A stretch of DNA of 39,967 nt from contig DASVDK010000090.1 of NCBI GenBank assembly GCA_036381125.1, positions 1 to 39,967 on the forward strand, read 5' to 3'. This document shows, piece by piece, positions 3,105 through 15,059 of this stretch. The notes under the pieces were generated by a model that did not search any database, was not told where the DNA came from, and saw nothing but the letters and a program-made list of their open reading frames with translations. The DNA comes from Thermodesulfobacteriota bacterium (lineage in GTDB: Bacteria > DASVDK01). A program made the position numbers and the translations under genes. Numbering within the stretch: the first letter of the stretch is position 1; each line of letters starts with the position of its first letter.

Positions 3105-5138
3105 TCAGACTGGCTCCGCGGCGGGGACCACGTCGACGGCCGCCTCGTAGCTCGCCTGTCCGGCGGGAAGGCCCGGGACGAGGTCGGAGGCCTCGGGCGC
3201 GAGGCAGGCGGCGCCCGACGTGAGGGCGTTCACGCCGACCCATCCGTCGCGCATCCAGACCACCCCTCGCGGCACGTCGTCGGTGAGGCGGGCGCGCGCC
3301 TCGAAGCGGCCGCGGTCGTTCACGAGGGCGACCGCCGCCCCCTCCGCGATGCCGCGCGCGCCCGCGTCGGCCGGGTGGATGGCGAGGACGGGATGGGGGT
3401 CGGCGGCGGCCAGGGAGGGGAGGGCGCGCCCCTCGTCGTAGAAGGCGTGGAACGCGGTGAAGGTGCGGCCCTGCCGAAAGACCAGCGGGTACGGAGAGGC
3501 GTGCTCCTCCGGCGGCTCGTAGACCGGCAGCGGCGGCAGCCCGACCGAACGGGCGCGCTCGGACCAGAACTCGACCTTGCCGGAGGGGGTGGGGAAGCGC
3601 CGCTCTGGGTGGGCCACGTGGGAGATGCGGCGCGCGTACCGGTTGCCGGTGCGGCGCATCTCGGCGACGGTGAGGGTGCCGTCGCGCATGGTGCGGAGGA
3701 GCGCCTCGATGGCGCCGTCGGCGTCGGCCCACGGGAAGAAGTCCGGCACCGGCAGGCGGTCGGCCAGCGCCCGCAGCAGCCAGACCACCGACCGCGCCTC
3801 GCCGGCAGGCTCGAGCCCCTGATCGGTGAGGTAGATGTGCGTGGCCGTGTCCTTGATCCCCACCTCCTCGAGCCATGCCGTCCCCGGCAGGACGAGGTCG
3901 GCGTGCCGCCGGATCGTCTCGTTCATGAAGAGGTCGTGGGCCACGACGAGGCCGACGCGGTCGAGCCCCCGCGCAGCCCGGCCCGCGTCCGCGTACGAGG
4001 CGAGCATGTTCGTGCCGAGGAGCAGGAGGACGGCGATGCGGCCCTCGAGCATCGCGTCGTTCATGGCCGTCATGTGCGAGGGGACGTAGTCGCCGGGCGG
4101 CCGGCGCTCGCCCGCCGTGATGTCGGCGAGCGCCTCGCCGTGCGTGAAGGCGCGGTGCCGCGGGCCGAGGCCGCCGCCGGGAACGCCGAGCTGGCCGGTG
4201 AGGGCCGGGAGGCACGAGATGGCCCGCGACGCGAGCCATCCCGTCCGGAACTTGTACATGGAGGAGCCGCCCGCGACGATCATCGCCGGCTTCGCCGTGG
4301 CGTAGCGGCGGGCGAGCGCGCGGATCGTCCCGGCCTCGAGCCCGGTCACCGCGGCCCCCCACTCGGGGGTCCGCTCGCGCAGCGGCCCGGCGAGCGGCTC
4401 GAAGCCGACGGTGTGGCGCGCGACGAACTCCCGGTCGACGAGCCCCTCGGATACGATGACGTGCATCATCGCGAGCGCCAGCGCGGCGTCGGTCCCGGGG
4501 CGGATCACGTGGAACTCGTCGGCGAGGCGGGCCGTCTCCGTCCGGCGCACGTCGATGGCGGCCACGTACGCGCCTCGCCGCTTCGCGGCCTGGAGGTGCG
4601 GTCCCGTCGTGGGCTGGCTCACCACGTTGGCGCCCCACATGAGGACCGTGCGCGCGTGCTTGCCGAGGTCCTCCTTGGTGTTGGCCTCGGGTACGCCGGT
4701 CAGGGCGAAGCCGTAGGCGCCGAGCGTCCAGCAGGTGATGGCGGCGCTCCAGGCGTGGCAGCCGTAGAGGTTGCCGAAGCGGAGGACCAGGAAGCGGTTG
4801 AGCTCGTTCACGAGGGAGCCGTGCCCGCGCCAGAGCGCGGTCTTCATCCGACCCGCCTTCCGCATGGCGGCGACGATCTCGTCGAGCGCCGCGTCCCACG
4901 ACACCGGCTCCCACCGGCCGCTCCCCCGCGGCCCGGCGCGCCTGAGCGGCGTCAGGAGACGCAGCGGGTTGCCGATGATCTCCTTTGCGGCGTGCCCGCG
5001 CTGGCAGAGGAAGCCGCGGCTGTCCGGATTGGTCCGGTCGCCGCGGACCGCGACGACCCGGTCCCCCTCGAGCGCCACCTCCATGCCGCAGAAGGTCGGG
5101 TGGCAGTTCATGGGGCACATCGTCCGGAGGAGCCGCAT
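3105..5138 (-). CDS. molybdopterin (DMSO reductase superfamily) oxidoreductase with N-terminal 4Fe-4S site
   Basis: CPMNCHPTFC...LCQRG, RLLTPL, VSWDAAL, PGTDAALA, ADLVLP, TPSGKVE, IHPADA. No Tat signal. Start taken as ATG 5138. Confidence 0.9.
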   Translation of the reverse strand: MRLLRTMCPMNCHPTFCGMEVALEGDRVVAVRGDRTNPDSRGFLCQRGHAAKEIIGNPLRLLTPLRRAGPRGSGRWEPVSWDAALDEIVAAMRKAGRMKTALWRGHGSLVNELNRFLVLRFGNLYGCHAWSAAITCWTLGAYGFALTGVPEANTKEDLGKHARTVLMWGANVVSQPTTGPHLQAAKRRGAYVAAIDVRRTETARLADEFHVIRPGTDAALALAMMHVIVSEGLVDREFVARHTVGFEPLAGPLRERTPEWGAAVTGLEAGTIRALARRYATAKPAMIVAGGSSMYKFRTGWLASRAISCLPALTGQLGVPGGGLGPRHRAFTHGEALADITAGERRPPGDYVPSHMTAMNDAMLEGRIAVLLLLGTNMLASYADAGRAARGLDRVGLVVAHDLFMNETIRRHADLVLPGTAWLEEVGIKDTATHIYLTDQGLEPAGEARSVVWLLRALADRLPVPDFFPWADADGAIEALLRTMRDGTLTVAEMRRTGNRYARRISHVAHPERRFPTPSGKVEFWSERARSVGLPPLPVYEPPEEHASPYPLVFRQGRTFTAFHAFYDEGRALPSLAAADPHPVLAIHPADAGARGIAEGAAVALVNDRGRFEARARLTDDVPRGVVWMRDGWVGVNALTSGAACLAPEASDLVPGLPAGQASYEAAVDVVPAAEPV

Positions 5139-5205
5139 GACGTGACTGTAGCGCCCGGCAGCGGTGATGTTCGCCGGCCTGGACGACCGCCCCGTGGCGC
5201 GGCCG

Positions 5206-5736
5206 TTATCTCCGCTCGCCACGCTGCGTGGAGCAGTGCTCGTGCCGGACGAGCCAGGCATCGGCCGGCTTGCGGTAGAGGGCGCTGCACCTCGCCCGCT
5301 GCTGCACGGCGACCTGCCCGCCGGCCGCGATGGCGAAGACGAGATCGTAGGTCGCCCAGCCGGTCGTCGCGTTCACCAGGTCGACGCGGATGTTGGTGGT
5401 CCGCGCCACCATCTGGATGGGCGCCCCGCTGTCGATGCGCACCTTGAGCGCCTCGAGGAGGCGGCGCACGTCGGCCAGTGTCTGCCGGTCGCCGTCCTGA
5501 ATGGCGTCGTAGTCCGGAGTGTAGAAGCGCAGGACGCTCTCCGGGTCGGCCGTCCTGGGGAAATCGGTCACCGCCCGCGCCGTGTCGGTGATGGCCCGGG
5601 CGATGGCGAAGCGCTCGTCCGCTCCGTCGGTGGCCGGCTCGGCCGCCGTGCCGCGGGCCGAGGCGCAGCCGGTGAGCGCCAGCAGGGCGCACAGGACGAG
5701 TCCGAGACGTGCACGGAAGGAACCCTCGAGCGCCAT
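5206..5736 (-). CDS. SnoaL/NTF2-like (DUF4440-type) lipoprotein
   Basis: Lipobox LALTG-C, FYTPD motif and WLVRHEHCS C-terminus typical of this fold. GGAGG RBS. Confidence 0.7.
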   Translation of the reverse strand: MALEGSFRARLGLVLCALLALTGCASARGTAAEPATDGADERFAIARAITDTARAVTDFPRTADPESVLRFYTPDYDAIQDGDRQTLADVRRLLEALKVRIDSGAPIQMVARTTNIRVDLVNATTGWATYDLVFAIAAGGQVAVQQRARCSALYRKPADAWLVRHEHCSTQRGERR

Positions 5737-6539: not shown

Positions 6540-7310
6540 TCAGCCCCCCCGCACCGCGGCGAGCGTCCGCCGGCAGGCGTCGAGGAAGAGCTTCTCGGCG
6601 CCGGCGACGGTCACGAAGTCGACCCCCGCGGCGATCCGGCGACGCGCCTCGGCCTCGTCGTAGCAGGAGAGCCCCGCCGCGAGCCCTCGCGCTTTCACGC
6701 GGGCGATGGCGTCGTCGATCCGCCGCACGACCTCGGGGTGGTTCGGTTGCCCCGCGTGGCCGAGCGCGTGCGAGAGGTCGGTGAAGCCGAAGAAGACGGC
6801 GTCGAGGCCATCGACCGAGAGGATCTCGTCGAGGTTCTCGAAGCCGAGCGGCGACTCGACGAGGACCATCGTCGTGCGCAGCCGGTTCTCGGCCGCGTAG
6901 TACTCGGCCGACGGGGTGAGGCCGTAGCGCGCGCCCCGCACGCGCGGGCAGGCGCCCCGCGACCCGAGGGGGGCGAACTTCGAGGCGGCCACGGCGCGTC
7001 GCGCGTCGTCCCGCGTCTCGACCTGCGGGATCAGCACGCCGTCGGCCCCGAGGTCGAGCGCCTTGGCGACGTGGGGCGAGCCCTTCCCCTCCACGCGGAC
7101 GATCGCCGAGATCCCGGACGTCTCGGCCGCCGAGAGGATCCGAGGGACGGCGTCGAAGCCGAAGGCGCTGTGCTCGAGGTCGACGACGACGAAGTCGAAG
7201 CCGGCCACCCCCATGATCTCGACCAGCTCGGGGAGATCCAGCATCAGCCAGGAGCCGACGAGGCCGCCTCGCGAGAGGCGGCCTCGGAAGGTGTCGCGGG
7301 CGGGCATCAC
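6540..7310 (-). CDS. HpcH/HpaI aldolase family protein
   Basis: GFDFVVVDLEH, ALDLGADGVLIPQV, VES, FFGFTDLS motifs. Confidence 0.9.
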   Translation of the reverse strand: MMPARDTFRGRLSRGGLVGSWLMLDLPELVEIMGVAGFDFVVVDLEHSAFGFDAVPRILSAAETSGISAIVRVEGKGSPHVAKALDLGADGVLIPQVETRDDARRAVAASKFAPLGSRGACPRVRGARYGLTPSAEYYAAENRLRTTMVLVESPLGFENLDEILSVDGLDAVFFGFTDLSHALGHAGQPNHPEVVRRIDDAIARVKARGLAAGLSCYDEAEARRRIAAGVDFVTVAGAEKLFLDACRRTLAAVRGG

Positions 7311-7333: not shown

Positions 7334-8080
7334 TCAGGACCTCCGGCGGCCGGGCGGCGTCTCGCCCCGCTGCTCCGGGGCGAGGCGGGCGATGTGGTCG
7401 ACCACGGCGTGGCTCCCCTCGAGGATGTTCCGCCGCATGAGCTGCTCCGCCTCCGCCGCGTCGCGCCGGCGCAGGGCGTCGAGGAGGGCGACGTGCTCGC
7501 GGTGCGCCTGCTCCACGCGCTCGGGGAGGTCCCGGTACAGCATCCGGAAGCGGGCGGTCCGGTCGAGGAGCCCCTCGAGCGCGTCGGCGAGGACCGGGTT
7601 GCCGGAGGCGAGGTGGATCGCGCGGTGGAAGTCGCGGTTCATGGCGATGACCTCGGCCAGGCGCCCCTCGGCGAGGTGGCGCGACATCGCCTCGACGAGC
7701 GTCCCGATCCGCTCGAGGGCGTCGGCGTCGGCCCGTTCGGCGGCGCGCGCCGCGGCGAGGCCCTCGAGGGCGCCGCGCATGTCGTAGAGGTGCCGCACCT
7801 CGTCGGCCGCGAGCGGCGCCACCACCGCGCCCCGGTTGGGCCGGTAGACGACGAGGCCGTCCGCGTGCAGGCGGATCAGCGCCTCGCGTACCGGCGTGGG
7901 GCTCACGCCGAGGCTGGCCGCGAGGTCGACCGCCTTCAGCGCGGCGCCGGGGGCGAGCCGGTGCGTGACGATCGCCCGGCGCAGCGTGTCGTAAACCAGG
8001 GTCTGAGCCGAACGATACCCGCGATCGGTGATCGCGAGCGTGCTCGCGTCCGGTTTCCGGGAGATCCGGTTGACGTCCAT
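7334..8080 (-). CDS. GntR-family (FCD domain) regulator
   Basis: LGVSPTPVREAL HTH; FCD motifs NRDFHRAI, SGNPVL and HREH. Confidence 0.9.
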   Translation of the reverse strand: MDVNRISRKPDASTLAITDRGYRSAQTLVYDTLRRAIVTHRLAPGAALKAVDLAASLGVSPTPVREALIRLHADGLVVYRPNRGAVVAPLAADEVRHLYDMRGALEGLAAARAAERADADALERIGTLVEAMSRHLAEGRLAEVIAMNRDFHRAIHLASGNPVLADALEGLLDRTARFRMLYRDLPERVEQAHREHVALLDALRRRDAAEAEQLMRRNILEGSHAVVDHIARLAPEQRGETPPGRRRS

Positions 8081-8124
8081 TGTCTATATTCTATAAACTA
8101 CGCGGCGGCCAGCCGAGCTGTCAA
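8081..8124 (-). promoter_or_regulatory. sigma70 promoter of gntR with AT-rich probable operator
   Basis: TTGACA (8119-8124)-N18-TAGTTT (8095-8100), followed by the TATAGAATATAGACA repeat directly before the ATG. Confidence 0.5.
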
Positions 8125-8168
8125 GCCGTTCGCGTTGCCGTCGACTGGCGTTTGCCGGAGGGGTGGAG

Positions 8169-8924
8169 ATGGAGGTCGTCAAGGTCTACGTCCGGCCCGG
8201 GTGATTCACCTGCGGCTCAACGAAAGAGTTTCTTTCGTCCAACGGCATCCCGTTCGAGACCCGTGACGTCGAGCACGACCCCGAGGCGCGTGCGGAGCTT
8301 GCCGCGCTCGGGCTCAGGACGCTCCCGGTGACGGTCGTCGGCGAGCGGGTCATCGTCGGCTTCGATCGGTCGAAGCTCGCCGCCGCGCTCGGCGTCGAGC
8401 GCGCCGCCGGGCCCCGGGTCGATGCGCCCCTTCTGCTCGAGCGCTACGAGCGGGTGTTCGGCGGCTTCTCGCGCGCGGCCCGGCAGGTGCCCGACGAGAA
8501 GCTGGACTGGAAGTCGCCCGAGCGCGATCGGACGCTCCGGAAGTTCCTCTTCCACGTGTACGACCGGCCGGACCTCATGCTCAGGGGCCGCCAGACCGGC
8601 GTCTACCGGTACGAGGACGTGATGGCGGGATACGACCGGGCGGAGGCGTACCGGACGACGGCGGCGCTCGTCGGGCGGGGCGACGAGCTCGTGGCCGGCG
8701 TCTGCGCCTTCCTGCGCGGCGCCACGCCGGCCGACCTGGCGCAGCCGATCGACACGTACCAGGGGGTGCTCGGGCTCGGGGAGCTGCTCGTGCTGGGGCT
8801 CGGGCACGCCGCGCACCACCTGCGCCAGCTCTACCACTACTTCGGGCTCCTCGGGATCACGGCCGAGTCACCCCTCGGCGAGGCGGACTTCGAGGGGATC
8901 CCGCTGCCGAAGGAGAAGTTCTGA
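8169..8924 (+). CDS. glutaredoxin (UxxC)-DinB fusion, probable selenoprotein (251 aa with TGA read as Sec)
   Basis: ATG 8169 with GGAGGGG RBS: MEVVKVYVRPG-TGA(8202-8204)-FTCGSTKEFLSSNGIPFETRDV...RTLPVTVVGERVIVGFD. This is a NrdH/Grx fold, in frame with track ORF 8328-8924, which carries the DinB His motifs FLFHV and HAAHHLRQL. Confidence 0.85.
8220..8238 (+). other. candidate bacterial SECIS hairpin
   Basis: ACGAAAGA-GTT-TCTTTCGT is a perfect 8-bp stem starting at the 16th nt after the TGA. The apical loop begins with G (+24), and the element is unusually AT-rich for this genome. Confidence 0.7.
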
Positions 8925-10105
8925 CGACGTCCTACCGGCGCGACGCGCTCGTCCTCGCGACGTCGGTCTTCCTCGCGTCGCCGGGACTGGCCATCGTCGC
9001 GCCGCTCATCGCGCCGATCCGCGACGAGTTCGGCGTCGGCAACTTCGAGGCGGGCCTCGTCGTGTCGGCGTTCGGCATCGCCCGCATGCTGGCCGACCTC
9101 CCGGCGGGCGTGCTCGCCGACCGGCTGCCGAAGGCCTTCCTCACGGCCGGCGGCTTCGGGTTCCTCCTGGCCGGGTCGCTCCTCTCGGCCGTGGCGCCGA
9201 GCCTCTCGCTCCTGCTCGCCGGCCGGGCGCTCACGGGGATCGGCTCCGGGCTCGTCATGACGACGGCGATCGCCTGGGCGGGCGCCATCGCGCCGCCCGG
9301 CCGGCAGGCGCGCCTCATCAGCCAGGTCGAGGCCACCTGGATGACGAGCGCCACGGTCGCGCCGGTCATCGGCGGCACCGTCGCGAGCCACTGGGGCTGG
9401 CGGGCGACGTTCTGGTACTGCGCGATCGCGGCGGTCGTGTCCGCGGCCATGCTCCTCGCGCTGGCCGGCCGCGGACGGGCCGCCGCGCCGGCCGCGCGCA
9501 AGCGGGGGGCCGCGCCGCACGCGGTCGGCGCCTCGGGCCCGGTCCTCGGGGCCTACGCGGCCGGGTTCACGATCTTCTTCAACCGCAACGGCGTGCGGAA
9601 CATGCTCCTGCCGCTCTTCGCGGCGAGCGTGGTGGGGCTCGGCGAGGCGTCGGTGGGGCTCGTCGTGGCGGTCGTGGCCGGTGTGACCGTGGCGACGACG
9701 GTGCTCGGCGGTCAGCTCGCCGATCGGTTCGGGCGGCGCCCGGTCCTCCTGGCCGGCCTCGCCGTCCTGATCGCGGGCGACCTCGCCCTCCTCGTCGCCC
9801 GGAGCGAGCCCTGGCTGCTCGCCGTGGGGGTCCTCATGGGGCTCGGCGGCATCGCGAGCAGCATCCCGGCGGCCGTCCTCACCGGCAGCGTCCCGGCGGA
9901 GCGGCTCGGCGGGACGATCGGCGGCTACCGCCTCGTGCAGGACGTCGGCTTCGTGCTCGGCCCCCTCGTGCTCGGCGCGATCCTCGACCGCGCCGGGTTC
10001 GGGACCGGGCTCGTCTTCGCGGCGGTCGTCGTCGCCGCCGGATCGGCGTTCGTCGCCGCGCTCGTGCGGCCGCCGGCGCCGGGAGCGGGGCGGGGAGGGA
10101 CGTGA
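8921..10105 (+). CDS. MFS transporter, probable CTG start
   Basis: GVLADRL and GQLADRFGRR MFS motifs. The frame extends upstream of track start 9062 through a first TM helix to CTG 8921, which overlaps the upstream TGA (CTGA) and follows AAGGAG. Confidence 0.85.
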   Translation: MTTSYRRDALVLATSVFLASPGLAIVAPLIAPIRDEFGVGNFEAGLVVSAFGIARMLADLPAGVLADRLPKAFLTAGGFGFLLAGSLLSAVAPSLSLLLAGRALTGIGSGLVMTTAIAWAGAIAPPGRQARLISQVEATWMTSATVAPVIGGTVASHWGWRATFWYCAIAAVVSAAMLLALAGRGRAAAPAARKRGAAPHAVGASGPVLGAYAAGFTIFFNRNGVRNMLLPLFAASVVGLGEASVGLVVAVVAGVTVATTVLGGQLADRFGRRPVLLAGLAVLIAGDLALLVARSEPWLLAVGVLMGLGGIASSIPAAVLTGSVPAERLGGTIGGYRLVQDVGFVLGPLVLGAILDRAGFGTGLVFAAVVVAAGSAFVAALVRPPAPGAGRGGT

Positions 10106-10126: not shown

Positions 10127-10999
10127 TCAGGCCCTCGCCACGTAGCGCCGAGGGGCGACCGCGCGCCCGCGCGGCCTCGCCGCGCGCGCCCCGGCGAGGA
10201 GCCCGCGCAGGCGCGCGAGGCTCCGCCGCTTCGCCTCCACGTCGCGCAGTTCGATGATGAGCGGCCCCGCGTAGTCGATGGCGCCGAGCTGCCGGAAGAG
10301 GGCGCCGAAGTCGAGCGTCCCCTCGCCGACCGCGAGGTGCTCGTCGATCGTCCCCCGGTTGTCCGAGAGCTGTACCTCGCGGATCCGGTCGCCGAAGAGC
10401 CTGACGAACCGCCCCGTCCCGCCCGGCAGGAGGTTGCAGTGGGCGGCGTCGAGCGCCAGCCCCAGGTAGGGCGAGCGGATCCGCCGGAAGAGGTCCGCGA
10501 ACTCCTCCGTCGTGACCCCCAGGTACTGGAACTCCGACGCGGGCCCCATGTGGTTCATGTTCTCGATCACGAGCGGGACCCGCCTGCGCTCGCCGTAGTC
10601 GGTCACCTCGGCGAGCGTGTCGTAGAGCGCCCGCTTCACCCGGTCCAGGTAGACGCTGAAGTGGAAGCCCATGTGGATCACGAGGTACTCGCAGCCGAGC
10701 GCCTTCGTGAGGTCGACGTACGCCTTCATGTCGGCCACGACCGCCTTGCGGACGATCGGCATGATCTCCGCGGTGTTCACGAACGAGGCCGAGTGGAGCC
10801 CGCACCGCAGGCCCGAGCGCTCCACGAGGCGTCGCACGCGGGCGATGCGCGGCCGGTCGAAGGTCTCGGGGAAGTTCGCCGGGTGCTGGCAGGCGAACTC
10901 GAGCCAGGAGAGGCCCTCCCGCCTCGCGAGCGGGAGGTACCGCTCGATCGGGCCGGACGAGGCGGCGAAGCCGATCTGATCGGGCGTGATGCGACGCAT
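10127..10999 (-). CDS. sugar-phosphate isomerase/epimerase (xylose-isomerase-like TIM barrel)
   Basis: IEN, LDAAH, QLSDN, DEHL..GEG..DF and IIE metal-binding motifs. Confidence 0.85.
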   Translation of the reverse strand: MRRITPDQIGFAASSGPIERYLPLARREGLSWLEFACQHPANFPETFDRPRIARVRRLVERSGLRCGLHSASFVNTAEIMPIVRKAVVADMKAYVDLTKALGCEYLVIHMGFHFSVYLDRVKRALYDTLAEVTDYGERRRVPLVIENMNHMGPASEFQYLGVTTEEFADLFRRIRSPYLGLALDAAHCNLLPGGTGRFVRLFGDRIREVQLSDNRGTIDEHLAVGEGTLDFGALFRQLGAIDYAGPLIIELRDVEAKRRSLARLRGLLAGARAARPRGRAVAPRRYVARA

Positions 11000-11018
11000 G
11001 GCGGTCTCCGGGAACGGG

Positions 11019-12506
11019 TCAGGCGGCGGCCCGCTCGGGCCGCACGAGCCGGACGGCGAGCGGGGTCAGCACGACGAGCGCGGTCGCCGCGAGGAGCACG
11101 GCCGAGATCGGCCGCGTCAGGAAGATGGCCACGCTGCCGTGCGACAGGGTGAGCGACTGGCGCAGCGCGTTCTCGAAGAGCGGCTCGAGCACGAGGCCCA
11201 GGATCATCGGCGCGGCCGGGAAATCGTACCGCTTCATGAAGAAGCCGAGGAGGCCGAAGCCGGCCATGAGCCAGAGGTCGTCGAGGCTGTTCGACTGGCT
11301 GTACACGCCGACGATGCAGAAGGCGAGGATGACGGGGTAGAGGATGGCATAGGGCACGCGGAGCAGGACGGCGAAGATCGGCGCGAGCGGGAGGTTGAGG
11401 ATCAGGAGCAGCACGTTGCCGATGTACATGCTCGCGATGATCCCCCAGACGAAGTCCGGGTGCTGCTGGAAGAGCTGGGGGCCGGGCCTGAGGCCGAACA
11501 TGATGAGCGCCCCCAGCATGACGGCGGTCGTGCCCGAGCCGGGGATGCCGAGGGCGAACATCGGGACCATGGCGCCGGCCGACGCGCCGTTGTTGGCCGC
11601 CTCCGGCGCCGCGACGGCCTCGATCGTGCCGGTGCCGAACCGCTCGGGGTGCCTCGACAGCTTCCGCTCGACCGCGTACGTGACGAACGAGGCGATGGTG
11701 GCGCCCGCGCCCGGCAGGACGCCCACGAGGTAGCCGATGAGGGAGCCCCTGAGGATCGGCAGCCGGCAGGCCCGGAAGTCCTCCCGGGTGGGCCAGACGT
11801 TCCGGATGCTCGTCGTGATCGGCGCCGGGATCTCCTGGCTCACGCTGGCGAGCACCTCGCCGACCCCGAACATGGCGACCGCGAGCACGAGGAACTCGAT
11901 GCCGTCGAGGAGCCAGACCTGGCCGAACGTGAACCGGGTGCTGCCGACCTGCGGGTCGATGCCGATGGTCGCGAGGAGGAGGCCGGCCACGCCGGTGAGG
12001 AGCCCCTTCAGGACCGATCCGCTCACGATGGCGAGGGCGGCCAGGCCCATGACGACCAGCGCGAAGTACTCCGGCGGTCCGAAGAGGAGCGCCGCCTGTG
12101 CGAGCGCCGGGGCGGCCAGCATGAGGCCGACCGTCCCGAGCGTGCCGGCGACGAAGGAGCCGATCGCGGCCATGCCGAGCGCCGCGCCGGCGCGCCCCTT
12201 GCGGGCCATCTGGTAGCCGTCGAGGCTGGTCATGACGGTGGAGGACTCGCCCGGCACGCTCACGAGGACCGACGTGATCGTGCCGCCGTACTGCGCGCCG
12301 TAGTAGATGCCGGCGAACATGATCGTGGCGGCGATCGGGTCGCCGCCGAACGTGAGCGGCATGAGGATGGCGATGCCGGCCGAGGGGCCGATCCCCGGCA
12401 GGGCGCCGATGGCCTGGCCGAGCAGGACGCCGAGAAGGCAGAAGAGGAGGTTCGTCGGCGTGAGGACGACCGAGAACCCCTGCGCGAGATGTCCGAGGAC
12501 GTCCAC
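11019..12506 (-). CDS. tctA: tripartite tricarboxylate transporter large permease TctA
   Basis: GALPGIG, YYGAQYGG, PGESS, PEAANN, LGIPGS motifs. GTG start at 12506. Confidence 0.93.
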   Translation of the reverse strand: MDVLGHLAQGFSVVLTPTNLLFCLLGVLLGQAIGALPGIGPSAGIAILMPLTFGGDPIAATIMFAGIYYGAQYGGTITSVLVSVPGESSTVMTSLDGYQMARKGRAGAALGMAAIGSFVAGTLGTVGLMLAAPALAQAALLFGPPEYFALVVMGLAALAIVSGSVLKGLLTGVAGLLLATIGIDPQVGSTRFTFGQVWLLDGIEFLVLAVAMFGVGEVLASVSQEIPAPITTSIRNVWPTREDFRACRLPILRGSLIGYLVGVLPGAGATIASFVTYAVERKLSRHPERFGTGTIEAVAAPEAANNGASAGAMVPMFALGIPGSGTTAVMLGALIMFGLRPGPQLFQQHPDFVWGIIASMYIGNVLLLILNLPLAPIFAVLLRVPYAILYPVILAFCIVGVYSQSNSLDDLWLMAGFGLLGFFMKRYDFPAAPMILGLVLEPLFENALRQSLTLSHGSVAIFLTRPISAVLLAATALVVLTPLAVRLVRPERAAA

Positions 12507-12508
12507 GG

Positions 12509-12961
12509 CTAGAACCCCCAGGGGCCGCGGGGGAGCGGCACCTTGAGCCAGGCCTGGAAGATCAGGTAGAGCCCGAGCGTCGCCCCCAGGGCGACGCCCG
12601 CCGACAGGCCCCATCCCCGCCGCTCGACCGCGCGGGCGAGGAAGAGCAGGTAGGCCGCGATGGAGGCGGTGAAGCCGAGCTCCCCGATCGCCGCGATGCA
12701 GGCGACGAGCCCCAGCGACACCGCCGCCACCTTGCGCCGGTCCGCCGGGGAGGGCCCGGAGGCGCCGTCGCCCGCCGGCTTCGCGGGGCGCGTGGTGAAG
12801 AGGAAGCCGGCGACGAGCGCGACCAGGAGGAGGCCGAGCCAGAAGGGGAGGAAGCCGGCGCCCGGCACCGACTCCTCCATGTAGCTCAGGTCGCGCGCCT
12901 CGAGCGCGAAGAACAGGCCGACGAGGCCGAAGAGGCCGGCGAGGACCCGTTCACCGCTCAT
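12509..12961 (-). CDS. tctB: tripartite tricarboxylate transporter small permease TctB
   Basis: 150-aa membrane protein with PGAGFLP, LGF and FQAWLKVPLPRG, directly upstream of tctA. Confidence 0.88.
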   Translation of the reverse strand: MSGERVLAGLFGLVGLFFALEARDLSYMEESVPGAGFLPFWLGLLLVALVAGFLFTTRPAKPAGDGASGPSPADRRKVAAVSLGLVACIAAIGELGFTASIAAYLLFLARAVERRGWGLSAGVALGATLGLYLIFQAWLKVPLPRGPWGF

Positions 12962-14082
12962 CGCGCGCGCCACTCCTCGATGCGGGCCCAGTCGAGCGCC
13001 ACGCCGAGACCCGGCCCGATCGGCGGCCGGATCTCGCCCCGCCTCGGCTGGAGGTCGGCCGTGACGATGTCGGCCGTGACCCCCATCGGCTGCAGCGAGC
13101 CGATCTCGTGCGGCGGGCAGAGGTTGGGCGCGGTGAGGGCGAGCTGCGCCTCGGCCGCCGCGGCGAGGCCCATCTCGAAGACGTGCCCGAGGACGCAGCC
13201 GATGCCGGCCGCCTCGAGCATGCCGACCAGGAGCCGCGCGCCGTCGAGTCCGTGCTTCGTCGCCTTGACCTTCACCCGGTCGGCCGCGCCGAGACGGATC
13301 ACCGCGGCGGCGTCCTGCGGCGTCGCGACCGCGTCGTCCGTCATGAGCGGCACGCCGACCTTCCGGCGCACCTCCGCCATGCCGAGCAGGTCGTGGCGGG
13401 GGAGCGGCTGTTCCACGTGCTCGGGCTCGTACGGCTCGATGGCGCGGATGAAGCGGACGGCGTCGGCCGGCCGGTAATGGTCGTTGGCGTCGACGCGGAG
13501 CGCCGCCGCCGCGCCGACCGCCTCGCGCACGGCGCGCACCCTGGCGAGGTCCCGTTCCGGCGTCTCGCCCACCTTGAGCTTGAGGGTGGTGAAGCCGGCC
13601 TCGACGAGCGCCCGCGCGCGGGCCGCCATCTCGTCGGGCGCCGCCATGGAGAGGACCGGCCCGATCACCGGGATGCGGTCGGTCAGGCGGCCGCCGAGCA
13701 GATCGCTCACCGGCACGCCGAGCGCCTTTCCCTGGAGGTCCCAGAGGGCGTTGTTCAGCGCCGCCTTCGTCCAGATGCGTCCCTTGAGGACCGCCTCCAC
13801 CCGCCGCATGGCGGCGATCCGCTCGGTGGCGGGAAGCCCGGTGACGGCCGGCGCCACGTAGCGCCGAACCGCGCCGACGATCTCCTCGAGGAACTCCTCC
13901 GGCTTGCCCGGCGGCGCCGAGACGGCCTCGGCGATCCCCTCGAGACCGTCCACGTCGGTGAGGACCCGCAGCACGACCGAGACGTGCGTTCGGGTCCCCC
14001 CCTCGGAGATGCGGAAGTCGCGAGGGCCGGCGACGACGAGCGGGATGGCCTCGACGCCGGCGATGCGCGGACCGGTCGTCAC
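12958..14082 (-). CDS. muconate cycloisomerase-like enolase-superfamily enzyme
   Basis: KLKVG, VDAN, EQP, MTDD, KVKATK and PGLGV motifs. GTG start overlaps the tctC stop. Confidence 0.88.
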   Translation of the reverse strand: MTTGPRIAGVEAIPLVVAGPRDFRISEGGTRTHVSVVLRVLTDVDGLEGIAEAVSAPPGKPEEFLEEIVGAVRRYVAPAVTGLPATERIAAMRRVEAVLKGRIWTKAALNNALWDLQGKALGVPVSDLLGGRLTDRIPVIGPVLSMAAPDEMAARARALVEAGFTTLKLKVGETPERDLARVRAVREAVGAAAALRVDANDHYRPADAVRFIRAIEPYEPEHVEQPLPRHDLLGMAEVRRKVGVPLMTDDAVATPQDAAAVIRLGAADRVKVKATKHGLDGARLLVGMLEAAGIGCVLGHVFEMGLAAAAEAQLALTAPNLCPPHEIGSLQPMGVTADIVTADLQPRRGEIRPPIGPGLGVALDWARIEEWRAR

Positions 14083-15059
14083 CTGGGGAGCTGGCCGAGC
14101 CGGGCGAGCATGTCCCTGTAGAGCGCTTCCTGCCGCTCGAGGAACCCTGCGAAGTCTCGTGCCGGCAGCACGTGCTCGGTCGCCACGTTGGACGAGATGT
14201 ACGCCTTGAACGCCGGGCTCCGGGCGACCTGCTGCATGACGCCTTCCCAGTAGGCCACGGCGTCGGCCTGCACGCCCTTCGGCATGGCGACGCCGCGCCA
14301 CATCTGGAACGGCGCCGTCTCGATCCCCTGCTCCTCGAGGGTCGGCACGTCGGGCATCGCCGTGAAGCGGGTGGGCCGGAAGACCCCGATCGGCCGCACC
14401 GCGCCGGCCTGGATCTGGCCCATGAACTCGAGCGGGTTGCCCGAGGCGACGTCCACGTGGCCGCCGAGGAGCGCCGTGAGGACCTCTCCGCCGGAGTTGA
14501 ACCGGACGATGTTGAGCCTGATGCCGGTGGCCGCCTCGAACACCGCGATCGACATGTCGTCCGCGGTGCCCGCGGAGCCGACCGACACCGTGCGCGGTCC
14601 CTTCTGCCTCGCCGCCGCAACCAGCCCGGCCGCCGTCGTGTAGGGCGAGTCCTTGCGGACCATGAGGATGTAGTCGTCGAGCATGAAGTTCATGACCGGC
14701 GTGAGGTCGCGCCACCCCCTGGCGTCCTTGACCCGGAGGGGGGTGATCTGGGTCTGCGGGTTGATCAGCACGAGCGTGTGCGGGTCGCCCGACTTCGCCG
14801 CCACCACGTAGCCGACGCCGGCCGCGCTGCCGCCGCCCGGCTTGTTCACCGCCACGACGGAGGTGGGGACGAGCTTCTCCTCCTGGATGATCTTGATGAT
14901 CGTCCGGGCCAGGAGGTCGGCCCCGCCGCCGAGGCCGTACGGGATGACGAACTCGACCTCTTTCGTCGGCTTCCACTCCGCCTGCGCGGCGGACGTCGCG
15001 AGGACGACCCCCACCAGCGCAAGGACCCCCGCAAGGGCCGCCCGCCGGACCATTCGCAT
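14079..15059 (-). CDS. tctC: tripartite tricarboxylate transporter substrate-binding protein TctC (Bug family)
   Basis: Signal peptide; PYGLGGGADLLAR, NKPGGG, ALLGGHVD, DVPTLEEQG. AGGAGG RBS. Confidence 0.92.
   Translation of the reverse strand: MRMVRRAALAGVLALVGVVLATSAAQAEWKPTKEVEFVIPYGLGGGADLLARTIIKIIQEEKLVPTSVVAVNKPGGGSAAGVGYVVAAKSGDPHTLVLINPQTQITPLRVKDARGWRDLTPVMNFMLDDYILMVRKDSPYTTAAGLVAAARQKGPRTVSVGSAGTADDMSIAVFEAATGIRLNIVRFNSGGEVLTALLGGHVDVASGNPLEFMGQIQAGAVRPIGVFRPTRFTAMPDVPTLEEQGIETAPFQMWRGVAMPKGVQADAVAYWEGVMQQVARSPAFKAYISSNVATEHVLPARDFAGFLERQEALYRDMLARLGQLPR

Follow-up and report, generated by a model that had tools for sequence, protein, structure and literature searches.

The window examined is the whole 39,967-nt stretch of contig DASVDK010000090.1 (assembly GCA_036381125.1), from a bacterium labelled Thermodesulfobacteriota. 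Within it, positions 8169–8924 are predicted, with a probability put at about 0.87, to form one intact gene for a 251-residue selenoprotein in which a glutaredoxin (Grx) domain is fused to a DinB domain and a UGA is decoded as selenocysteine (Sec, U) with a downstream hairpin. This UGA is codon 12 and, judged by sequence comparison, almost certainly encodes Sec in the active site of the Grx domain. The features concerned, all on the + strand, are:

8157–8161, +, Shine–Dalgarno-like GGAGG, read directly from the sequence
8169–8924, +, predicted full coding sequence of Grx(U)–DinB, 251 residues plus a TGA stop at 8922–8924, from translation with TGA = U, Pfam, and full-length TGA and Cys homologues
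8178–8354, +, Grx/NrdH-like domain, residues 4–62 by Pfam, with the fold covering about 1–75
8202–8204, +, in-frame TGA, codon 12, predicted Sec, position 1 of U-F-T-C
8211–8213, +, TGC, Cys15, putative resolving cysteine of UxxC, invariant in a 40-sequence alignment
8220–8238, +, candidate selenocysteine insertion sequence (SECIS) hairpin with a 7–8-bp stem and apical (A)GUU(U) loop, beginning 15 nt past the TGA
8328–8924, +, truncated 198-aa open reading frame (ORF) from a GTG start, as standard gene callers would give it, from the mechanical ORF list
8448–8831, +, DinB_2 four-helix bundle, residues 94–221, PF12867

Anatomy of the gene

The GGAGG at 8157–8161 lies 7 nt 5' of the ATG at 8169, and purine-rich boxes (GGAG or GAGG) are also found 5' of the extended ORF in a same-genome paralogue and at loci L039, L041 and L042. 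Translation of 8169–8924 with TGA as U places codon 12 in the context VYVRPG-U-FTC-G. Pfam Glutaredoxin (PF00462) matches residues 4–62 (6.9e-14, 52.2 bits against a cut-off of 22.9), and DinB_2 (PF12867) matches residues 94–221 (5.8e-11, 43.4 bits against a cut-off of 24.8). His129, His213 and His217 of the DinB part are all encoded by CAC (8553–8555, 8805–8807 and 8817–8819). The first-pass annotation had described a ribosome-binding site and ATG at 8169, a single in-frame TGA at the first position of a CxxC motif (PG-U-FTC), a Grx/NrdH-like N terminus running into a DinB domain with His motifs, and an ORF track that drops this N terminus; each of these holds, with Pfam, the AlphaFold model and Foldseek in agreement on the two domains and the listed ORF beginning only at GTG 8328.

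If the TGA were a true stop, the product would be a 198-aa DinB-only protein started at GTG 8328, and the Grx frame upstream would have decayed. Database gene calls do all show the DinB-only form, and stand-alone DinB proteins are common. However, the GTG start cuts the Grx fold midway, inside β-strand 3, modelled by AlphaFold2 with a pLDDT (predicted local distance difference test) of 90–96; a ribosome-binding site precedes ATG 8169 and none precedes GTG 8328; homologues with Cys in place of U are continuous proteins of 245–276 aa; and in-frame conservation on both flanks of the TGA persists down to 41% identity. A true stop is thus considered extremely improbable.

Conservation of the in-frame TGA

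Every one of the 48 TGA-form genes for which DNA was examined (44 of them distinct) has its TGA at this codon, a recurrence well beyond chance, and 40 relatives have Cys there; the TGA is kept across U-FTC, U-FSC, U-TSC and U-SSC clades. Close relatives with TGA at this codon include a 91%-identical orthologue in a same-genus genome and the paralogue on another contig of the same genome (G000:C302), which is 76% identical. A scan of species-representative genomes yielded seven relatives, five of them full length (of the other two, L044 runs into the end of its contig and L045 matches only residues 218–249). All five carry TGA in the motif RPG-U-FTC-[GS]x-TKEFLS, at 91–41% identity, in metagenome-assembled genomes (MAGs) labelled Thermodesulfobacteriota, Gemmatimonadetes, Ca. 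Sulfotelmatobacter, Binatia and Dehalococcoidia. Among 401 genomes searched with a profile, six contained a total of seven full-length genes, each with a single TGA, and four of these genes were new (three U-SSC and one U-FSC). When metagenomes were scanned with a Cys-form profile, at least 555 relatives were obtained, of which the best 80 loci were analysed. The motif was located in 77 (L087, L113 and L156 were left out, as the motif pattern did not locate the redox site), comprising 37 TGA forms (36 U-TSC and 1 U-SSC) and 40 Cys forms (21 CSSC and 19 CTSC). In the 40-sequence alignment used for the protein, column 12 is TGA in 7 rows and Cys in 33.

Given a single in-frame stop near the 5' end of a gene in a fragmented MAG of 382 contigs, one might suspect faulty sequencing or assembly, or else a pseudogene created by a recent nonsense mutation. 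Contigs from four public sequencing runs were compared with positions 8000–9000 of the window. No alternative letter occurs at 8202–8204 in any of the four. Two other studies contributed contigs (X2 record 9 and X3 record 16) that span the TGA codon and show 0 differences, and in the possible source run the two differences known from the paralogue are seen as well, at 8216–8217. Moreover, the window gene and its paralogue differ only synonymously at codons 4–11, directly 5' of the TGA, and the 48 genes that share the codon come from several phylum labels. The TGA at 8202–8204 is accordingly judged to be neither an error nor a nonsense mutation, the chance of either being practically negligible. 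The first-pass annotation had named TGC or TGT in the reads, or a TGA kept by no relative, as findings that would speak against Sec. Neither Cys codon is seen in the four runs, and the relatives do keep the TGA or have Cys in its place.

A candidate SECIS hairpin downstream of the TGA

The hairpin at 8220–8238 has a predicted energy of −7.6 kcal/mol (z −3.34), and 1 of 200 shuffles was equally good. Its core is the same in seven U-FTC genes bar one loop change, over protein identities down to 41% and GC contents at third codon positions of 0.61–0.94, and the paralogue on G000:C302 carries the same hairpin. In the U-FSC gene L057, a C-G stem pair is replaced by U-A, with both sides changed. In five of the six columns of codons 18–23 (T K E F L S), the seven genes share a single codon, and among these are AAA, TTT and CTT, which end in A or T; elsewhere in these genes, columns with an invariant residue mostly show two to five codons.

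Across the 44 distinct TGA forms, the helix pairing columns 17–25 with 31–39 forms in 74.2% of cells versus 69.2% in column shuffles, a value reached by 0 of 500 shuffles, and slid partners pair in only 32–52% of cells. Covariation can be seen at pair 19–37, which is C-G in 23 forms, A-U in 8 and G-U in 2. Codon choice within the hairpin also separates the two kinds of gene, the Cys forms being a natural control with an almost identical peptide: the Lys codon is AAA in 35 of 44 TGA forms versus 7 of 37 Cys forms, which use AAG; GAG is found in 43 of 44 versus 21 of 37, TTT in 36 of 44 versus 17 of 37, and TCG as the next codon in 40 of 44 versus 0 of 37. Five to eight of the nine helix pairs form in TGA forms, as against two to five in Cys forms. 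By these comparisons, the hairpin is judged to be under RNA-level selection in the TGA forms only, with the helix not formed in the Cys forms.

At L096, L083 and other U-TSC loci, the favoured hairpin lies a few bases further 5' (−6.8 kcal/mol, 3' arm GAGUUUC). This shifted helix, pairing columns 15–21 with 25–31, was tried as an alternative and rejected: no covariation was seen for it, 234 of 500 shuffles pair at least as fully, and the 17–25/31–39 helix was kept.

Selenocysteine machinery

The genome contains selA (3.7e-148), selB (3.9e-101) and selD (7.3e-105), all above curated cut-offs. At its catalytic position, the selD gene (G000:C156:487-1425, L010) likewise contains an in-frame TGA (...YAACAG-U-ASKLGP), so that SelD here is itself predicted to be a selenoprotein; its U is presumed to align with Cys17 of Escherichia coli SelD. 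Genomes with a TGA form contain selA in 10 of 10 cases versus 178 of 401 sampled background genomes, and within the 401-genome sample selA is present in all 6 TGA-form genomes (4 genera).

Several results count against the reading of 8169–8924 as a selenoprotein gene served by this hairpin. No tRNA-Sec was found in the 382-contig assembly (96% completeness), the best match to RF01852 (46.4 bits) being a tRNA-Ser, and ARAGORN named no tRNA-Sec among the RF01852 matches or, over the whole genome, among 53 tRNAs. RNAalifold returned no consensus pairs for 48 sequences consisting of the TGA plus 57 nt, and an Rfam scan of 8100–8400 at E <= 10 gave three chance-level matches and no SECIS family. 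The U-TSC clade usually mismatches two of the nine helix pairs, and RNAfold favours the shifted hairpin there. The counts of TGA versus Cys forms are not independent, because the groups compared are clades, and the tree requires just three state changes. In addition, T-K-E-F-L is kept in the Cys forms too, so that protein constraint accounts for some of the conservation at the nucleotide level.

With respect to the tRNA, an Rfam search of two odd ARAGORN calls and of the contigs carrying sel genes also gave 0 tRNA-Sec matches. A same-genus genome does have a tRNA-Sec (71.7 bits; called tRNA-SeC by ARAGORN, anticodon TCA), and the DNA beside it (G001:C139) matches contig G000:C236 of the present genome up to 10 nt from the contig end (15785–15794). 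As the flanking match stops at the end of the contig, the tRNA-Sec has most likely been lost in an assembly gap, and synteny with G001:C139 predicts that it would sit about 0.75 kb beyond the end of G000:C236. This account, which relies on synteny with one relative, is itself a weak point of the case for Sec. The first-pass annotation had taken a genome lacking selABC as evidence against Sec; selA and selB, and also selD, are present, and only selC, the tRNA-Sec gene, was not found in the assembly.

Alternatively, near-cognate decoding could insert Cys or Trp at the UGA, or the code could be reassigned. The tRNA-Sec result would fit this explanation, as would two public gene calls, P0093 and P0111, that have Trp at the Sec position. 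However, the gene itself terminates in TGA, selA, selB and a Sec-type selD are present, with selA in all 10 genomes that carry a TGA form, and the downstream hairpin is specific to TGA forms. Read-through without Sec is regarded as highly improbable. Decoding by Sec would follow the established bacterial pathway: SelB-GTP carrying Sec-tRNA(Sec) would bind the hairpin at 8220–8238 while the ribosome sits at the UGA and would insert selenocysteine at codon 12.

Size, annotation and phylogeny of the family

Near-length database homologues (36–91% identity) show why the family has been hidden: in 16 of 16, the gene call begins at residue 27 or later, and 0 of 16 include the redox motif. An exhaustive HMMER search yielded 1879 proteins at a threshold of E <= 1e-3; at E <= 1e-10 there were 210 cluster representatives. 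The best 150 of these comprise 84 with a truncated N terminus, 63 with Cys-x-x-Cys, 2 with Trp where Sec would be and 1 that fits none of these classes; 76 of the 84 truncated representatives start at query positions 13–45. The two with Trp, P0093 (G-W-FTC) and P0111 (G-W-FSC), may be the product of gene calling under a TGA = Trp table. Source annotations call the relatives only "glutaredoxin", "DinB family protein" or hypothetical. Sec seems to be used by roughly half of the family, and the Sec members are systematically truncated in public annotation. The window gene is best regarded as representing a large Grx(U/C)–DinB family that has been mis-annotated. The family is widespread among soil bacteria, and many soil MAG annotations need correction.

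A quick maximum likelihood tree was constructed for 88 genes with the U/C column masked. The window gene falls within an all-Sec clade of eight U-FTC and U-FSC genes with an SH-aLRT (Shimodaira–Hasegawa-like approximate likelihood ratio test) value of 100, and the other 80 rows form a second clade, in which U-SSC genes make up a small group beside clades that mix Sec with Cys forms. Just 3 changes between Sec and Cys are required by the tree (shuffled mean 29). Under midpoint rooting Sec is found on both sides, which is compatible with, and does not prove, a Sec ancestor. The TGA and Cys forms provide a well-controlled natural set for the study of SECIS evolution.

Stand-alone Grx-like sequences were also encountered. 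At G001:C241:383-619 (L035), an ORF of about 75 residues has a TGA in G-U-GAC and probably encodes a further small selenoprotein, distinct from Grx–DinB, in the same genus. The 401-genome search likewise gave many Grx-only matches of about 80 aa with one TGA each.

Predicted fold and conserved residues

An AlphaFold2 model based on the 40-row alignment has a pLDDT of 94 and a predicted template modelling score of 0.90, and in this model the protein is one compact two-domain body, with long helices at 86–104, 123–143, 164–184 and 203–228. Foldseek matches residues 1–80 to cGrx1 (42% identity, TMt 0.92), BC3987 and NrdH, the PDB entries matched being 7c10 (cGrx1), 3zit and 1h75, and a PDB profile search reaches 7c10 at 5.1e-21. 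Residues of about 85–240 match 2nsf (a mycothiol-dependent maleylpyruvate isomerase), the top structure on the DinB side, as well as 1rxq (YfiT of Bacillus subtilis), 6iz2 (DR0053) and 8f5v (the mycothiol S-transferase of Mycobacterium tuberculosis). No solved PDB chain found by Foldseek or the PDB profile search spans both domains.

Across the 7 Sec and 33 Cys forms, the invariant residues are U/C12, C15, G48, P53, G199 and H217, and no Cys is conserved in the DinB domain; in the same alignment, conservation reaches 90% or more at H129, H213, R219, Q220, K19 and E20. P53 is taken to be the cis-Pro of the thioredoxin (Trx) fold, and H129, H213 and H217 are assumed, in part by analogy, to be the metal ligands of the DinB domain.

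Gene neighbourhood

The neighbouring genes and the paralogue are:

7334–8080, −, GntR/FCD-family regulator, divergent, Pfam FCD 7.4e-30 and GntR 3.1e-16
8933–10105, +, major facilitator superfamily (MFS) transporter, directly downstream, Pfam MFS_1 1.1e-50 over residues 9–200 of the translation from 8933
G000:C302:20353-21114 (L034:1495-2256; L052), paralogous Grx(U)–DinB gene, U-FTC, on another contig

The MFS gene is probably co-transcribed with the selenoprotein gene. Its true start is uncertain: no ATG, GTG or TTG occurs before 9062, yet the MFS_1 match runs from about 8957. The sole nearby candidate is a CTG at 8921–8923, which overlaps the TGA stop of the selenoprotein gene (cTGa) and would imply translational coupling or a non-canonical start. 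Elsewhere around the gene (473–1672, 3105–5261, 6540–7310 and 10127–14976) there are two enolase-superfamily (MR_MLE) genes, a molybdopterin oxidoreductase, an HpcH/HpaI aldolase, a xylose-isomerase-like TIM barrel, TctA and TctB, so the region looks like one for organic-acid or sugar-acid utilisation. Downstream of the paralogue and convergent with it is egtD (Methyltransf_33, 2.7e-87), followed by the C-terminal FGE-sulfatase domain of egtB, which runs off the contig; TctC and TctA are found further upstream of the paralogue.

For the family as a whole, 962 flanking ORFs from 87 loci were clustered. A GntR/FCD homologue lies upstream of both the window gene and the paralogue, and GntR/FCD genes occur at these 2 of 87 loci only. 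An MFS gene adjoins the family gene at 1 of 87 loci, and the egtD/egtB pair is likewise found at 1 of 87, beside the paralogue only. The gene contexts of L040–L043 are mutually unrelated.

Possible function

U12 and C15 are the sole conserved redox-active residues and the DinB domain has no conserved Cys; the U12 selenolate therefore probably attacks the substrate. On this basis the U12 selenolate is proposed, tentatively and at somewhat less than even odds, as the primary catalytic nucleophile acting on a substrate at the DinB His3–metal site. Disulfides, thiol conjugates and electrophiles are all candidate substrates; the substrate would be held at this site, lined by the conserved Arg119, Arg121 and Arg219. 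Resolution of the adduct by C15 would give a selenenylsulfide, to be recycled by a cellular reductase system. Whereas stand-alone DinB/YfiT enzymes rely on bacillithiol or mycothiol for their thiol, the fused protein would in this way carry its own in cis. The suggestion of the first-pass annotation that the protein forms or resolves thiol conjugates remains a reasonable one.

Two observations tell against this functional proposal. No neighbour is common to the family in the 87 loci, the most frequent being TctC (18 of 87) and then SDR (9), and the DinB domain is remote in sequence from characterised enzymes, with 6iz2 as its best PDB match (2.2e-5).

Alternatively, the Grx domain may be an attached electron donor or deglutathionylase that recycles the small-thiol adduct of an ordinary DinB S-transferase. 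This would differ from U12 as nucleophile only in which thiol attacks first. It would suit the match of the PDB profile search to the Grx part of the peroxiredoxin (Prx)–Grx hybrid HI0572 of Haemophilus influenzae (1nm3, 1.9e-7), a kind of protein in which Grx has such a recycling role, the use of mycothiol by the DinB relatives 2nsf and 8f5v, and the position of the paralogue next to egtD/egtB, which are ergothioneine genes. The egt neighbourhood is, however, confined to 1 of 87 loci, and no thiol-biosynthesis gene recurs beside the family. An electron-donor role is possible, if on the unlikely side.

A third explanation is a maleylpyruvate-type, thiol-dependent cis–trans isomerase of organic-acid catabolism, for which U12 would be the built-in nucleophile. 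The top structural match on the DinB side is indeed a mycothiol-dependent maleylpyruvate isomerase (2nsf), the window holds HpcH aldolase, enolase-superfamily, TctA/TctB and GntR/FCD genes, and TctC is the most frequent neighbour of the family. Against these, the invariant C15 suggests disulfide or selenenylsulfide chemistry, which an isomerase would not need, no gentisate-pathway gene was identified, and Tct genes are numerous in such genomes, with 69 of 87 loci being without TctC. An isomerase is decidedly unlikely, and less likely than either U12 as the nucleophile on a DinB-bound substrate or the electron-donor role.

A broader evolutionary proposal is that the family is old, possibly with a Sec ancestor, that the fused redoxin provides a catalytic selenolate or thiolate in cis and so replaces the bacillithiol or mycothiol of classical DinB/YfiT transferases and isomerases, and that the SECIS core (AAAGAGUUUCU) has been inherited across phyla together with the gene. 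The soil phyla with Grx–DinB genes are presumed to be without bacillithiol and mycothiol. The proposal in its entirety is doubtful. If the fused redoxin does act in cis, the DinB fold would gain its first selenoenzyme, and the protein would represent a new catalytic route for thiol-dependent detoxification or isomerisation. It is a tractable candidate for establishing the role of a DinB domain that has its own (seleno)thiol.

Comparison with known systems

Neither Pfam nor NCBIfam has a model for the Grx–DinB combination, and none of the papers listed by a full-text literature search combining selenoprotein or selenocysteine with DinB deals with such a protein. The main text and tables of the 2022 and 2026 reviews of prokaryotic selenoproteins do not mention Grx–DinB and do not list PF12867; there, Grx (PF00462, UxxC) is listed only as a small stand-alone family. 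Of four sources (these two reviews, a preprint by Haft and Gwadz, and the deep-Sep article), three were searched for the term "DinB", and it occurs in none of the three. The family may appear in survey supplements under another name. The remark in the first-pass annotation that no characterised Sec version of this fusion was known agrees with the literature, as far as its main texts go, and with the family databases searched. UxxC selenoproteins of the Trx fold are well known; the combination of a Sec redox centre with a DinB metal domain is absent from all of the sources checked.

The protein is predicted to work in the manner of Grx-type UxxC selenoproteins and, by its domains, is assigned to Pfam Glutaredoxin plus DinB_2 and to no NCBIfam selenoprotein family. 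All of its NCBIfam matches are of the Grx type. Scores against the UXX-star, HUGP/GUXX-star and ArsC-family models of NCBIfam all fall below the cut-offs (48 vs 66, 37.7 vs 100, 30.2 vs 325 and 16 vs 85), as do those of Cys forms and of a U-TSC form, and the YruB and NrdH models are also below cut-off (66.7 vs 88.55 and 52.9 vs 85.75). The protein is not of the EgtB type either, in that Pfam finds no FGE-sulfatase domain and the PDB profile search, at E <= 0.01, yields no EgtB chain.

On the Grx side, the closest parallels are cGrx1 (7c10) and the NrdH/YruB redoxins, which share a Trx fold of about 75 residues with an N-terminal U/C-x-x-C motif. For residues 1–82, cGrx1 is the best match in both structure and sequence. 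This protein of Clostridium oremlandii is natively a selenoprotein with Sec at the first motif position (PMC7642778). It is, however, a stand-alone protein with U-P-x-C that reduces MsrA, whereas the window protein has U-F-T-C and is fused to DinB; sister clades of the window gene have U-T-S-C or U-S-S-C, again unlike the U-P-x-C of cGrx1.

On the DinB side, YfiT (1rxq), 2nsf, 8f5v and DR0053 (6iz2) have the same four-helix bundle, with a His in the first long helix and H-x3-H in the last. Unlike the window protein, these enzymes stand alone or have another C-terminal domain, and take their thiol from solution. The PDB sequence profile misses 2nsf, 8f5v and 1rxq and reaches only 6iz2. The resemblance to thiol S-transferases and isomerases (BstA, MST and MDMPI) would thus be one of fold only, and the protein is not classed as a member.

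Glutathione S-transferases have a comparable layout, with a Trx-like N-terminal domain on a helical C-terminal domain, and weak whole-chain Foldseek matches were obtained to 4kh7 and 6f05 (TMq 0.31–0.34). In contrast to theirs, the helical domain of the window protein is a DinB bundle with a metal triad, and the root-mean-square deviation is 10–15 Å; the likeness is one of analogy, not homology.

With respect to architecture, the protein resembles the Prx–Grx hybrid HI0572 (1nm3) and HUGP/GUXX-star (NF045501), in which Grx is fused to the enzyme that it serves, and the Grx part is detectable against both (1.9e-7 and 2.9e-7, respectively). UXX-star proteins, to judge by the family names, would carry Sec near the C terminus. 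The partner domains in HI0572 and HUGP/GUXX-star are Prx and HUGP, respectively, whereas in the window protein the putative Sec-containing Grx is joined to DinB.

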